Of a stretch of 64,000 bases of DNA, positions 1 through 5,936 are shown piece after piece. The position numbers and the translations under genes were made by a program. Each line of letters opens with the position of its first letter. Within the stretch, counting starts at the first letter, position 1. Source of the stretch: Scyliorhinus canicula (lineage: Eukaryota); assembly GCF_902713615.1 (NCBI RefSeq), contig NC_052146.1, positions 245,347,827 to 245,411,826 of the forward strand, written 5' to 3'. The notes below the pieces were generated by a model. That model saw nothing but the letters and a program-made list of their open reading frames with translations, was not told the origin of the DNA and ran no database searches.

Positions 1-2066
1 AGGTCATTTATAAAAATTACAAACAGCAGTGGCCCCAAAACAGATCCTTGCGGTACACCACTAGTAACTGAACTCCAGGATGAACATTTGCCATCAACCA
101 CCACCCTCTGTCTTCTTTCAGCTAGCCAATTACTGATCCAAACCGCTAAATCACCTTCAATTCCATACTTCCTTATTTTCTGCAATAGCCTACCATGGGG
201 AACTTTATCAAACGCCTTACTGAAATCCATATACACCACATCAACAGCTTTACCCTGATCCACCTGTTTGGTCACCTTCTCAAAAAACTCAATAAGGTTT
301 GTGAGACATGACCTACCCTTCACAAAACCGTGTTGAGTATCGCTAATCAACTTGTTCTTTTCAAGATGATTATAAACCCTATCTCTTATAACCTTTTCCA
401 ACATTTTACCCACAACCGAAGTAAGGCTCACAGGTCTATAATTACCAGGGTTGTCTCTACTCCCCTTCTTGAACAAGGGGGCAACATTTGCTATCCTCCA
501 GTCTTCCGGCACTATTCCTGTCGACAAAGACGACATAAAGATCAAGGACAAAGGCTCAGCAATCTCCTCCCTGGCTTCCCAGAGAATCCTAGGATAAATC
601 CCATCTGGCCCAGGGGACTTGTCGATTTTGACATTTTCTAAAATTGCTAACACCTCCTCCTTTTGAACCTCAATTCCATCTAGCCTGGTCGACTGAACCT
701 GAGTGTTCTCCTCGACAACATTGTCTTTCTCCAGTGTAAACACTGACGAAAAATATCCATTTAATGCTTCCCCTATCTCCTCTGATTCCACACACAACTT
801 TCCACTGCTATCCTTGATTGGCCCTAATCTTACTCGAGTCATTCTTTTGTTCCTGATATACCTATAGAAAGCCTTAGGGTTTTCCTTGATCCTATCCGCC
901 AACGACTTTTCGTGTCCTCTCCTCGCTCTTCTTAACTCTCCCTTTAGGTCCTTCCTGGCTAACTTGTAACTCTCAAGCGCCCTAACTGAGCCTTCATGTC
1001 TCATCCTAACATAAGCCTTCTTCTTCCTCTTGACAAGTGCTTCAACTTCCTTAGTAAACCACGGCTCCCTTGCTCGACAACTTCCTCCCTGCCTGACAGG
1101 TACATACTTATCAAGGACACGCAGTAGCTGTTCCTTGAAAAAGCTCCACATTTCGATTGTACCCATCCCCTGCAGTTTCCTTCCCCATCCTATACCTCCT
1201 AAATCTTGCCGAATAGCATCATAATTGCCTTTCCCCCAGCTATAATTCTTGCCTTGCGGTATATACCTATCCCTGCCCATTGCTAAAGTAAACATAACCG
1301 AGTTGTGATCACTATCACCAAAGTGCTCACCTACATCTAAATCTAACACCTGGCCGGGTTCATTACCCAGTACCAAATCCAATGTGGCCTCGCCCCTTGT
1401 TGGCCTGTCTACATACTGTGTCAGAAAACCCTCCTGCACACACTGCACAAAAACTGACCCATCTATAGTACTCGAACTATAGTATTTCCAGTCAATATTT
1501 GGAAAGTTAAAGTCCCCCATAACAACTACCCTGTTACTCTCGCTCCTGTCAAGAATCATCTTTGCAATCCTTTCCTCTACATCTCTGGGACTATTCGGAG
1601 GTCTATAGACAACTCCCAACAGGGTGACCTCTCCTCTACTGTTCCTAACCTCGGCCCATACTGCCTCAGTAGACGAGTCCTCAAGCGTCCTTTCTACCGC
1701 CGTAATACTTTCCTTGATTAACAATGCCACACCCCCCCCTCTTTTACCATCTTCTCTGTTCTTACAGAAACATCTAAATCCTGGAACCTGCAACAACCAT
1801 TCCTGTCCCTGCTCTACCCATGTCTCCGAAATCGCCACAACATCGAGATCCCAGGTACCAACCCATGCTGCAAGCTCACCCACCTTATTCCGGATGCTCC
1901 TGGCGTTGAAGTAGACACACTTCAAACCAGCGTCCTGCTTGCCGGTGCCCTCTTTCGAACTTTTAACCCTATCACTGACCTCACTACTCTCAACATCCTG
2001 TACACTGGGTCTACAATTTAGGTTCCCATCCCCCTGCTGAATTAGTTTAAACCCCCCCGAAGAGCA
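1..2066 (-). CDS. CR1 ORF2p (endonuclease plus N-terminal RT), partial, no upstream AUG
   Basis: Manual translation gives [68 protein letters not shown]. The track lists no stop-terminated minus ORF in 1-2040, consistent with a frame open to the window edge. Confidence 0.88.
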
Positions 2067-2977
2067 CTAGCAAATCTCCCTCCCAGGATATTGGTACCCC
2101 TCTGGTTCAGGTGAAGACCATCCTGTTTGTAGAGGTCCCACCTACCCCAGAATGAGCCCCAATTATCCAGGAAACCAAAACCCTCCCTCCTGCACCATCC
2201 CTGTAGCCACGTGTTCAACTCCTCTCTCTCCTTATTTCTTACTTCGCTAGCACATGGCACGGGTAACAACCCAGAGATAACAACTCTGTTTGTTCTAGCT
2301 CTCAGCTTCCACCCTAGCTCCCTGAATTTCTGTCTCAAATCCCCATCTCTCTTCCTACCTATGTCGTTGGTACCTATGTGGACCACGACTTGGGGCTGCT
2401 CCCCCTCCCCCTTAAGGATCCCAAAAACACGATCAGAGACATCACAAACCCTGGCACCTGGGAGGCAACACACCAACCGTGAGTCTCTTTCGTTCCCACA
2501 GAACCTCCTGTCTGTTCCTCTAACTATGGAGTCCCCAATGACAAGTGCTCTGTTCCTCTTCTCCCTTCCCTTCTGAGCAACAGGGACAGACTCTGTGCCA
2601 GAGACCTGCGCCCTATTGCTTACCCCTGGTAAGTCGTCCCCCGCAACAGTATCCAAAACGGTATACTTGTTATAGAGGGGAACGACCACAGGGGATCCCT
2701 GCACTGCCTGCCGGTTCCCTCTGCCTCCCCTGACGGTAACCCATCTACTTTCTTCTTTTACCTGAGGTGTGACTACCTCCCTATAACTCCTCTCAATAAC
2801 CTCCTCCGCCTCCCGAATGATCCGAAGTTCATCCAGCTCCAGCTCCAGGTCCCTAATGCGGCTCTCGAGGAGCTGGAGTTGGGTGCACTTCCCGCAGATG
2901 TAGTCAGAAGGGACACGAGAGGTGACCCTTTCCTCCCACATTCTGCAGGAGGAACATTCAACTGCCCTAGCCTCCAT
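2042..2977 (-). CDS. CR1 ORF1p (CxxC..CxxC zinc finger, coiled coil, GDSL/SGNH esterase)
   Basis: MEARAVECSSC...CGKC, LESRIRDLELELDEL, VIGDSIVRG, HIGTND, DGLHLN. Likely ATG at 2977; the ORF track extends it upstream to 3145. Confidence 0.92.
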   Translation of the reverse strand: MEARAVECSSCRMWEERVTSRVPSDYICGKCTQLQLLESRIRDLELELDELRIIREAEEVIERSYREVVTPQVKEESRWVTVRGGRGNRQAVQGSPVVVPLYNKYTVLDTVAGDDLPGVSNRAQVSGTESVPVAQKGREKRNRALVIGDSIVRGTDRRFCGNERDSRLVCCLPGARVCDVSDRVFGILKGEGEQPQVVVHIGTNDIGRKRDGDLRQKFRELGWKLRARTNRVVISGLLPVPCASEVRNKEREELNTWLQGWCRREGFGFLDNWGSFWGRWDLYKQDGLHLNQRGTNILGGRFASALRGGLN

Positions 2978-3149
2978 TCCCACTGAACTAACTTCCCAAC
3001 TACTGAAAAATAAAAAATAAAAACTTGTTAGTTTAGCAATCCAATGGACAGAGCTTTTTTTTTTGGTTAGAGGAGGAGGATGGGTGGGAGACACTACGTA
3101 AGTAGTGTTTCGGGTAAAGCTGTCACTCGAGAACAGCCCCTTCACAAAC

Positions 3150-3366
3150 CACCTTCAACTTACGCTGACCGCACTGCACGTATGCAAATCTCCCCGGAAC
3201 AGCCAATCAGAAGCTCTGCTCTGCTGCCCTCTGCTGGATGCTCACCTTCCGTCGAACTCCTCGGGTCACTGATGCAGGTGCACCTTCAACTTACGCTGAC
3301 CGCACTGCACGTATGCAAATCTCCCCGGAACAGCCAATCAGAAGCTCTGCTCTGCTGCCCTCTGCT
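3150..3366 (-). repeat. Two 86-bp direct repeats (131-bp period) in the CR1 5'UTR
   Basis: 3150-3235 and 3281-3366 are identical; each contains ATGCAAAT and CCAAT on the + strand. Confidence 0.9.
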
Positions 3367-4087: not shown

Positions 4088-5608
4088 GATAGATAGATAG
4101 AGATAGATAGAGAAATACAGCACAGAACAGGCCCTTCGGCCCACGATGTTGCGCCGAACTTTTGTCCTAGGTTAATCATAGAATTTTGGACAATTTGTCA
4201 TGGCCAATCCACCCAACCTGCACATCTTTGGACTGTGGGAGGAAACCGGAGTACCCGGAGGAAACCCACGCAGTCACGGGGAGGATGTGCAGACTCCACA
4301 CAGACAGTGACCCAAGTCGAAATCGAACTTGGGACCCTGGAGCTGTGAAGCAATTGTGCTATCCACAATGCTACCGTGCTGCCCTTAAGAAGTTAACCTA
4401 CACTCCCTTATTCTACCCTAATCCAAGTACCTATCCAATAGCCGTTTGAAGGTCCATAAATTTTCCGACTCAACTACTACCACAGGCAGTGCATTCCATG
4501 CCCCCACTACTCTCTGGGTAAAGAACCTACCTCTGACATACCCTCTATATCTTCCACCATTTATCTTAAATTTATGTCCCCTTGTAATGGTGTGTTCCAC
4601 CCGGGGAAAAAGTCTCTGCGTATCTACTCTATCTATTCCCCTGATCATCTTATAAACCTCTATCAAGTCGCCCCTCATCCTTCTCCGTTCCAATGAGAAA
4701 AGGCCCAGCACCCTCAATCTTTCCTCGTATGACCTACTCTCCATTCCAGGCAACATCCTGGTAAATCTCCTCTGCACCTTTTCCAAAGCTTCCACATCCT
4801 TCCTAAAATGAGGTGACCAGAACTGCACACAGTACTCCAAATGTGGCCTGACCAAGGTTTTGTACAGCTGCATCATCACCTCACGGCTCTTAAATTCAAT
4901 CCCTCTGCTAATGAACGCTAGCACACCATAGGCCTTCTTCACAGCTCTATCCACTTGAGTGGCAACTTTCAAAGAACAATGAACATAGACCCCAAGATCT
5001 CTCTGCTCCTCCACATTGCCAAGAACCCTACCATTAACCCTGTATTCCGCATTCAGATTTGTCCTTCCAAAATGGACAACCTCACACTTGTCAGGGTTAA
5101 ACTCCATCTGCCACTTCTCAGCCCAGCTCTGCATTCTATCTATGTCTCTTTGAAGCCGACAACAGCCCTCCTCACTATCCACAACTCCACCAATCTTCGT
5201 ATCATCTGCAAATTTACTGACCCACCCTTCAACTCCCTCATCCAAGTCGTTAATGAAAATCACAAACAGCAGAGGACCCAGAACTGATCCCTGCGGTACA
5301 CCACTGATAACTGGGCTCCAGGCTGAATATTTGCCATCCACCACAACTCTCTGTCTTCTATCGGTTAGCCAGTTTGTTATCCAACTGGCCAAATTTCCCA
5401 CTATCCCATGCCTCCTTACTTTCTGCATAAGCCTACCATGGGGAACCTTATCAAATGCCTTACTAAAATCCATGTACACTACATCCACTGCTTTACCTTC
5501 ATCCACATGCTTGGTCACCTCCTCAAAGAATTCAATAAGACTTGTAAGGCAAGATCTACCCCTCACAAATCCGTGCTGACTATCCCTAATCAAGCAATGC
5601 CTTTCCAG
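4088..5608 (-). mobile_element. 5'-truncated CR1 LINE with an open RT C-terminal frame (4418-5608)
   Basis: [39 protein letters not shown]; 3' tail GGGCCGAAGGGCCTGTTCTGTGCTGT followed by (TCTA)n. Confidence 0.95.
4180..4384 (-). mobile_element. HE1/V-SINE body inside the CR1 3'UTR
   Basis: tRNA-like head GGGCAGCACGGTAGC and V-domain GTGGGTTTCCTCCGGGTACTCCGGTTTCCTCCCACAGTCCAAAGATGTGCAGG. Confidence 0.85.
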
Positions 5609-5731
5609 GGCAATTTCCAGAGTGATTGCCTGGGGACACAGGGTTTGAATTCGGTCATGGTTGAATTTATAAAATCTGGAATTAAAAGTGCAAAGATGAC
5701 CATGAATCAATTGCCGTAAAAACACACCTGG

Positions 5732-5936
5732 GGGCAGCACGGTGACACAGTGGGTAGCATTGCTGTCTCACGGCGCCAAGGTCCCAGGTTCGATCCCGGT
5801 TCTGGGTCACTGTCCCCGTGTTTGCGTGGGTTTCACTCCCACAACCCAATGATGTGCAGGGTAGGTGGATTGGCCACGCTAGAATTGCCCCTTAATTGGA
5901 TATAATGAATTGGGTACACAAAATTATTTTTTAAAA
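5732..5936 (+). mobile_element. Short HE1/V-SINE variant with A/T-rich tail
   Basis: A/B-box head (GGTTCGATCCC), V-domain remnant, imperfect ~10-bp TSD (cacacctgg/cacatctgg). Confidence 0.8.

Follow-up and report, generated by a model that had tools for sequence, protein, structure and literature searches.

How long interspersed nuclear elements (LINEs) translate their second open reading frame (ORF2) is a long-standing question, and experiments on a few elements point to reinitiation or coupling. According to the available portions of the papers cited here, ORF2 of mammalian L1 is initiated independently of its AUG (PMC5009743), and ORF2 of silkworm SART1 is expressed by stop-start coupling at UAAUG, with the general LINE mechanism called unclear (PMC3708506). 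The elements TRE5-A and TRE3-A of Dictyostelium, which lack long terminal repeats (non-LTR elements), are stated to need a −1 frameshift for ORF2, so that frameshifting in a non-LTR element has precedent (PMC5911963). Here we describe the junction between ORF1 and ORF2 in an element of CR1, a major vertebrate LINE group. The element lies on the minus strand of a 64,000-nucleotide stretch of the Scyliorhinus canicula genome (NCBI RefSeq assembly GCF_902713615.1, contig NC_052146.1, forward-strand positions 245,347,827 to 245,411,826), hereafter the window, whose numbering is used throughout. At its junction a slippery heptamer, U_UUA_AAC, stands directly before the ORF1 stop codon. Low-level −1 programmed frameshifting on this heptamer probably yields an ORF1-ORF2 fusion, as suggested by its constraint across CR1 families.

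The ORF1/ORF2 junction of the window element

The junction comprises the following features.

2045..2051, minus strand: slippery heptamer U_UUA_AAC, the final two codons of ORF1 and candidate −1 shift site; exact in 32 of 35 non-redundant junctions
2042..2044, minus strand: ORF1 stop codon UAA, directly 3′ of the heptamer; heptamer with immediate stop in 29 of 35
2048..2054, minus strand: G_GGU_UUA, a second heptamer, present in the window and in only 11 of 35 junctions
2067..2069, minus strand: UAG closing the −1 frame upstream, which confines frameshift entry to the last 25 nucleotides of ORF1
1926..2044, minus strand: −1-frame linker from the shift site to the endonuclease, with no in-frame AUG and two out-of-frame AUGs (2029-2027 and 1996-1994)

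A first-pass annotation of the stretch had proposed that two overlapping, correctly phased heptamers join ORF1 to ORF2 by a −1 frameshift. Its junction coordinates, namely the UAG, both heptamers, the 25-nucleotide overlap and the AUG at 1559, are all confirmed, and the −1 frame, as it had read, leads without a stop from heptamer to endonuclease. This frame runs FKLIQQGDGN and reaches LKCVY at 1925, and its first in-frame AUG, at 1559, is codon 164 from the heptamer, deep in the endonuclease and past the YRPP motif (codon 148). The pairing of heptamers fared less well: both are present, but U_UUA_AAC alone is conserved and G_GGU_UUA is lineage-specific. The same heptamer and stop are found in all 30 family copies fetched from the genome, each with five open −1 codons upstream of UUU. 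None of the 30 has an in-frame AUG or stop ahead of the endonuclease motif, so that an in-frame AUG before the endonuclease, which had been named as grounds for abandoning the frameshift, is not found in the family. In all 30 copies only two AUGs occur within 150 nucleotides past the stop, both in the ORF1 frame. Such a junction is also rare in the window: among 5,564 stop triplets on both strands, TTTAAAC precedes one (this junction) and any X_XXY_YYZ precedes 13. The ORF2 protein must be made by a family of such youth and abundance, and no ordinary start for it is present.

Conservation and constraint of the heptamer

Divergent ORF1 queries identified three more CR1 families in the shark genome, in which the heptamer is present in 18 of 19 located copies (20 loci), 20 of 20 and 10 of 10, respectively. 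In the first of these families the stop is displaced one codon downstream, with the heptamer still in phase in the same 18 of 19. A catalytic-motif pattern that excludes the heptamer matches 13,206 places in the genome, versus 0 for a control pattern. Among 50 copies located by this motif (the first 30 listed and 20 chosen for variety among the first 100), the heptamer is at the exact distance in 37 and indel-shifted in 6, while 5 carry variants limited to one copy and 2 lack homologous sequence at that place; the within-genome tally rests on fetched copies.

The ORF1 protein provides a second view of the junction. Of 156 ORF1 homologues, 120 were listed, and the named ones come from sharks, rays, coelacanth, frogs, turtles and squamates. 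The catalytic motif occurs in 89 of those listed; in 85 of the 89 the protein ends no more than 40 residues past it, and 78 of the 85 finish with Leu-Asn. With a distant ORF1 as query, the best 120 of 1,497 matches include two named from the annelid Ridgeia, and 84 of 93 short-tailed proteins end in Leu-Asn. It is evident that the Leu-Asn ending tracks the stop codon and not the fold, because it sits 31 or 39 residues past the motif in annelid-type ORF1s versus 26 in vertebrate-type ones. The solved esterase 4c1b has no Leu-Asn at the aligned end. Esterase-type ORF1 also occurs in annelid-type CR1 elements, with the same junction (L072, L073 and L075; P0122-P0241).

A metagenome scan returned 44 loci, of which the 26 with a match near the ORF1 end were examined. 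Six end before the junction, one (L106) has another ORF1 type without the junction, and 19 reach it, with U_UUA_AAC in 17, U_UUA_AAU in one and G_UUA_AAC in one (L074); G_UU(A) is given as the equine arteritis virus form of the heptamer in the available part of PMC5009743. The nearest named proteins of eight tested sauropsid-type loci are from turtle and snake (38-51%), three annelid-type loci match Ridgeia proteins at 62-86%, and L074 was placed in neither group. In both the sauropsid- and the annelid-type loci, ORF2 shares 40-43% identity with that of the window. No related loci were found in viral contigs or prokaryote genome contigs.

To compare junctions without redundancy, 43 were reduced to 35 at <90% identity: all 19 from the metagenome, and 16 chosen to represent the own genome, without four degenerate copies from it whose families were already covered. 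Synonymous choice in the heptamer is nearly fixed in these 35 junctions: all 35 use UUA for Leu, 33 use AAC for Asn, and in 34 the wobble base ahead of UUA is U, though its codon specifies nine different amino acids. Parsimony on an upstream-sequence tree assigns 1, 0, 0, 0, 0, 0 and 2 changes to the seven heptamer positions. On the same tree, each wobble position in the seven codons before the heptamer changes 7-14 times, and those of invariant catalytic-loop residues, scored in 27 sequences, change 5-11 times. At the ORF1 stop the third base changes eight times, with UAG, UAA and UGA interchanging. A protein-level need for Leu-Asn is ruled out as the explanation, as it cannot account for fixed synonymous bases. 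These comparisons indicate that the constraint on the heptamer is at the RNA level, and that the junction signal is a real, deeply conserved feature. The heptamer and its −1 phase, whose conservation the first-pass annotation had proposed as a check, are thus kept across shark-, sauropsid- and annelid-type CR1s under strong synonymous constraint.

Sequences downstream of the heptamer

One further element of the junction recurs at a nearly constant place.

2025..2034, minus strand: G run GGGGG-NN-GGG, starting 11 nucleotides past the heptamer, a candidate unstructured stimulator; the start is at +11 in 27 of 33 cases

The start of the G run ranges from +8 to +13 among the 33 junctions. Its positions have 1-3 changes each, versus 5-11 in the eight positions before. 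The run is not just glycine coding, because the Gly codon here is GGG in 27 of 28 cases, versus 64 of 224 elsewhere.

Folding of the window sequence downstream of the heptamer gave no significant structure (z = 0.06). When minimum free energy, stems and H-type pseudoknots were compared with shuffles in 39 junctions, no local structure was conserved (z from −1.9 to +1.8), and the pseudoknot score lay beyond 95% of shuffles in 2 of 39. RNAalifold found no consensus pair in 25 aligned junctions. Inspection by eye had earlier revealed no clear downstream stimulator, and the folding and pseudoknot searches likewise gave no classical one.

Several partners or folds of the G run were considered and rejected. 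A G-quadruplex is predicted in only 13 of 39 junctions and not in the window family, so it is not general. A C-rich partner in ORF1, about 650 nucleotides upstream, scored well in several families; it shows no covariation with the G-run spacer and is missing in two shark families. C-tracts in the untranslated regions (UTRs) were no better: the one in the 3′ UTR is lacking in the window family and, by eye, has a complementary sequence a short way upstream within that UTR, and the one in the 5′ UTR matches by eye in the window family and is not complementary across the spacer in another. Within ORF2, no more than 8 of 17 elements share the best recurring partner sites. We infer that the G run is a candidate stimulator of a protein-bound or ribosome-contacting kind.

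Reading frame, start codons and alternative routes to ORF2

Of the 35 junctions, 23 allowed the endonuclease to be located; it lies in the −1 frame in 20 of these, the other three being single copies with a stop in the linker. Linkers between heptamer and endonuclease are about 37-88 codons long. The 18 intact linkers have 0 stops in the −1 frame versus 49 and 78 in the other two frames, a zero that is partly due to selection, the linkers having been chosen as intact. Nine of the 18 have no in-frame AUG. Because heptamer and stop are conserved together, with ORF2 one base back and often without a start codon, the ORF2 enzyme is likely to come from a −1 slip, and −1 frameshifting with no folded stimulator is the most likely role of the junction. 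The ORF1-ORF2 fusion by −1 frameshifting put forward in the first-pass annotation is thus supported, on the strength of sequence comparison.

Several observations weigh against frameshifting. The junctions compared share ancestry and were partly hand-picked. The apparent absence of a conserved stem or pseudoknot is unlike canonical −1 sites, where such a structure lies 5-9 nucleotides downstream. The other nine intact linkers carry an in-frame AUG, anywhere from codon 3 to codon 48, and in 6 of the 35 junctions an in-frame AUG lies within 10 nucleotides of the heptamer. In the second of the three additional shark families, a SART1-like UAAUG stop-start is found in 20 of 20 copies. The animal LINEs studied experimentally use reinitiation or coupling, as far as the available parts of two reports describe (PMC3708506, PMC5009743). 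Naturally fused copies show no sign of multiplication: four long-frame fused copies among 378 scored matches represent three events, since two of them, with identical flanks, stem from a single duplication. Searching for longer proteins, a weak test, gave four matches and no full fusion. In the fused copies (L200-L203), ORF1 and ORF2 form one open frame of about 1,320 codons, and L200 matches L201 exactly over 6.9 kb, flanks included.

ORF2 could also be reached by termination-reinitiation near the ORF1 stop, either AUG-independent as in L1 or UAAUG-coupled as in SART1, in which case ORF2 protein would be made separately and the heptamer and G run would hold the 40S subunit. The experiments on other animal LINEs, the family with UAAUG and the six junctions with a nearby AUG all speak for this route, and it too predicts an open in-frame linker; the stop adjoins the heptamer in 29 of 35. 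Yet no conserved AUG or near-cognate codon was found at a fixed place in the linkers. The SART1-type AUG at the ORF1 stop is not general, being limited to the six junctions above, and is absent from the window family, which has no AUG to offer and two out-of-frame AUGs in the scanning path. A near-cognate start at the Leu of LKCVY was ruled out, since both residue and codon vary. UGGGA is the motif of calicivirus-type termination-reinitiation (the termination upstream ribosome-binding site, TURBS). No such motif is fixed upstream of the CR1 stop: 17 of 35 junctions have it within 90 nucleotides but scattered, 22 of 35 have it in a control stretch further up, and the matches derive mostly from Trp codons. 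Reinitiation also leaves unexplained the phased X_XXY_YYZ letters, their persistence when the stop moves, and the families without AUG. It is unlikely to be the general route, although reinitiation may operate alongside frameshifting in families with a nearby AUG.

It is very doubtful that the heptamer and G run are kept for some other RNA function, such as ORF1 protein binding, packaging, dimerisation or termination control, with ORF2 expressed by an unrelated route. In its favour, a classical stimulator was not found and TTTAAA is self-complementary, but the motif keeps strictly to the codon phase of ORF1 and to the only few codons of open −1 overlap, and the families without AUG would still need a route to ORF2.

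Reads from four RNA runs labelled with the same species cover all bins. At the thresholds applied, these runs list no recurrent joint into ORF2 and no junction indel at about 7-32 reads per run there, with both strands read, and the evidence is weak because at such depth, on both strands, rare forms could escape. The most improbable explanation is an RNA, whether spliced, subgenomic or polymerase-slipped, that brings in a start or takes away the frame offset: a seven-G run precedes the heptamer in the window family and a pyrimidine tract with CAG precedes ORF1, but the upstream G run is not conserved and the reads list none of the expected forms.

Proposed mechanism

Frameshifting on U_UUA_AAC, which is among the most shift-prone heptamers in mammalian ribosomes in the account available from PMC5009743, would proceed as follows. 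The tRNA-Leu and tRNA-Asn would slip in tandem from UUA-AAC onto UUU-AAA, giving ...GGLN-LIQQGDGN.... The trans-frame peptide from this slip would begin GGLNLIQQGDGN, whereas a slip at G_GGU_UUA would give GGLKLIQQ. A minority of ribosomes would thereby make a fusion of about 1,272 aa that supplies endonuclease and reverse transcriptase, and most would terminate one codon later and release the ORF1 protein, resulting in a high ratio of ORF1 to ORF2 protein, as of Gag to Gag-Pol. More tentatively, the pause could arise from slow termination at the adjacent stop and an unpaired G run at the mRNA entry channel, not from a pseudoknot; the G run might be bound by a protein or touch the ribosome.

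A broader scenario can be put forward only tentatively, as possible and somewhat doubtful. Esterase-type CR1s, from annelids to sharks and sauropsids, would have produced reverse transcriptase within a Gag-Pol-like fusion from a time before protostomes and deuterostomes split, by means of a structure-free signal consisting of U_UUA_AAC, the adjacent stop and a G run at +11 read by a host G-tract binder, by the ORF1 protein or by the ribosome entry channel.

The window element and its family

Outside the junction, the element has the following parts.

2978..3366, minus strand: 5′ UTR, beginning with tandem 131-bp monomers; 5′ limit set by blastn against family copies
2042..2977, minus strand: ORF1, 311 aa, AUG at 2977, with an N-terminal Cys cluster and a C-terminal SGNH/GDSL esterase, ending ...RGGLN*
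1305..1925, minus strand: APE endonuclease domain of ORF2 (PF03372, E 6e-21)
1..464, minus strand: reverse transcriptase domain of ORF2 (PF00078); ORF2 extends past the left window edge

The ORF1 esterase domain is PF13472 (E 1e-13), and the ORF1 profile matches the ORF1-encoded protein of PDB entry 4c1b (E 4e-43). When the adjoining stretch (L155) is added, the copy is complete: the frame stays open for 963 codons from the heptamer and is followed by a short 3′ UTR and a tail of tandem repeats. An esterase ORF1, endonuclease and reverse transcriptase in ORF2, and a short 3′ UTR ending in a tandem repeat fit a CR1-clade LINE. Sharks and rays are the source of the nearest named proteins. Searching the shark's own genome at the DNA level gave 541 candidates for the family, 40 of them scored near-identical matches, and the 30 fetched copies share about 99% identity with the window copy where they match it longest. 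The window CR1 is an intact copy of a very young, active and abundant family.

We further noticed several features apart from the junction. The tandem 131-bp monomers form the 5′ end of the element (3366-3150, minus strand), further units are found in L023, L007, L016 and L200, and each monomer has a CCAAT-type word and the octamer ATTTGCAT. This array resembles the monomer promoters of mouse L1. The pyrimidine tract ending in CAG just 5′ of the ORF1 AUG (3020-3002, minus strand) looks like a splice acceptor; no RNA-read joint is listed there. In ORF1, a short GC-rich inverted repeat in QGSP codons (about 2710-2690, minus strand) recurs in several shark families and may form a local hairpin. 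RNA reads with loose ends and mixed flanks occur at both edges of an approximately 87-nucleotide stretch in the endonuclease region (about 1767-1855, plus strand), where a pyrimidine tract with AG, together with GT, fits a cryptic exon antisense to the LINE and spliced into host transcripts. Another CR1-like fragment (4418-5767, minus strand) has an open reverse transcriptase frame of 449 codons and gave no ORF1 or endonuclease matches. Among the homologues, two vertebrate-type CR1 ORF1 proteins (P0007 and P0087) are filed under a bacterium and a flatworm, and are probably host contamination.

Relation to known systems

A literature search gave no report of CR1 frameshifting, within a scope that left the 1997 chicken and turtle CR1 descriptions, supplements and Repbase entries outside. 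In the available portions of the sources, the words "frameshift" and "overlap" are absent from the PMC4120745 survey, "frameshift" is absent from PMC3708506, and CR1 does not occur as a whole word in PMC5009743. TRE5-A and TRE3-A are, like CR1, non-LTR elements whose ORF2 carries an endonuclease of the APE type and a reverse transcriptase, as the accessible text describes them (PMC5911963). They are amoebozoan and tRNA-gene-targeting and have another ORF1, whereas CR1 has the phased U_UUA_AAC and stop across animal lineages. The window element resembles CR1 subgroup 7 with ORF1 type IVB (zinc finger/leucine zipper and esterase) in its Cys cluster, its esterase and its endonuclease and reverse transcriptase in ORF2 (PMC4120745, available part). 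In the same part, that survey placed esterase ORF1 within this superfamily in vertebrate subgroups only, whereas we found it also in annelid-type elements with the same junction.

If the junction is indeed a frameshift site, it would supply the missing N-terminus of the CR1 ORF2 protein, predict an esterase-endonuclease-reverse transcriptase fusion, and alter the annotation and expression of CR1 ORF2. The conserved, phased slippery site makes the ORF2 question precisely and cheaply testable. A structure-free signal with a fixed G run would, if true, represent a frameshift stimulator of a new class, and perhaps a switch by which transposition is regulated through feedback. A fixed G run in place of a folded stimulator would be relevant to the recoding field apart from transposons.

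Coronavirus and arterivirus as well as retroviral −1 sites have a downstream stem-loop or pseudoknot, neither of which was obtained from the CR1 junctions. The coronavirus and arterivirus ORF1a-1b and retroviral gag-pol sites are like CR1 in the heptamer class, the short overlap and an upstream product that exceeds the polymerase, in the terms of the available part of PMC5009743. Mammalian L1 and SART1 share with CR1 a bicistronic LINE RNA and a low ORF2 output, whereas most CR1 families here have no conserved AUG or UAAUG. [quoted passage not shown] At the PRRSV nsp2 site, nsp1beta and poly(C)-binding protein stimulate frameshifting in trans (PMC5009743, available part), whereas the CR1 motif is G-rich and its binding protein only hypothetical. 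Like the arterivirus nsp2 site, the CR1 junctions have a conserved unpaired motif at a fixed downstream distance, the G run at +11.

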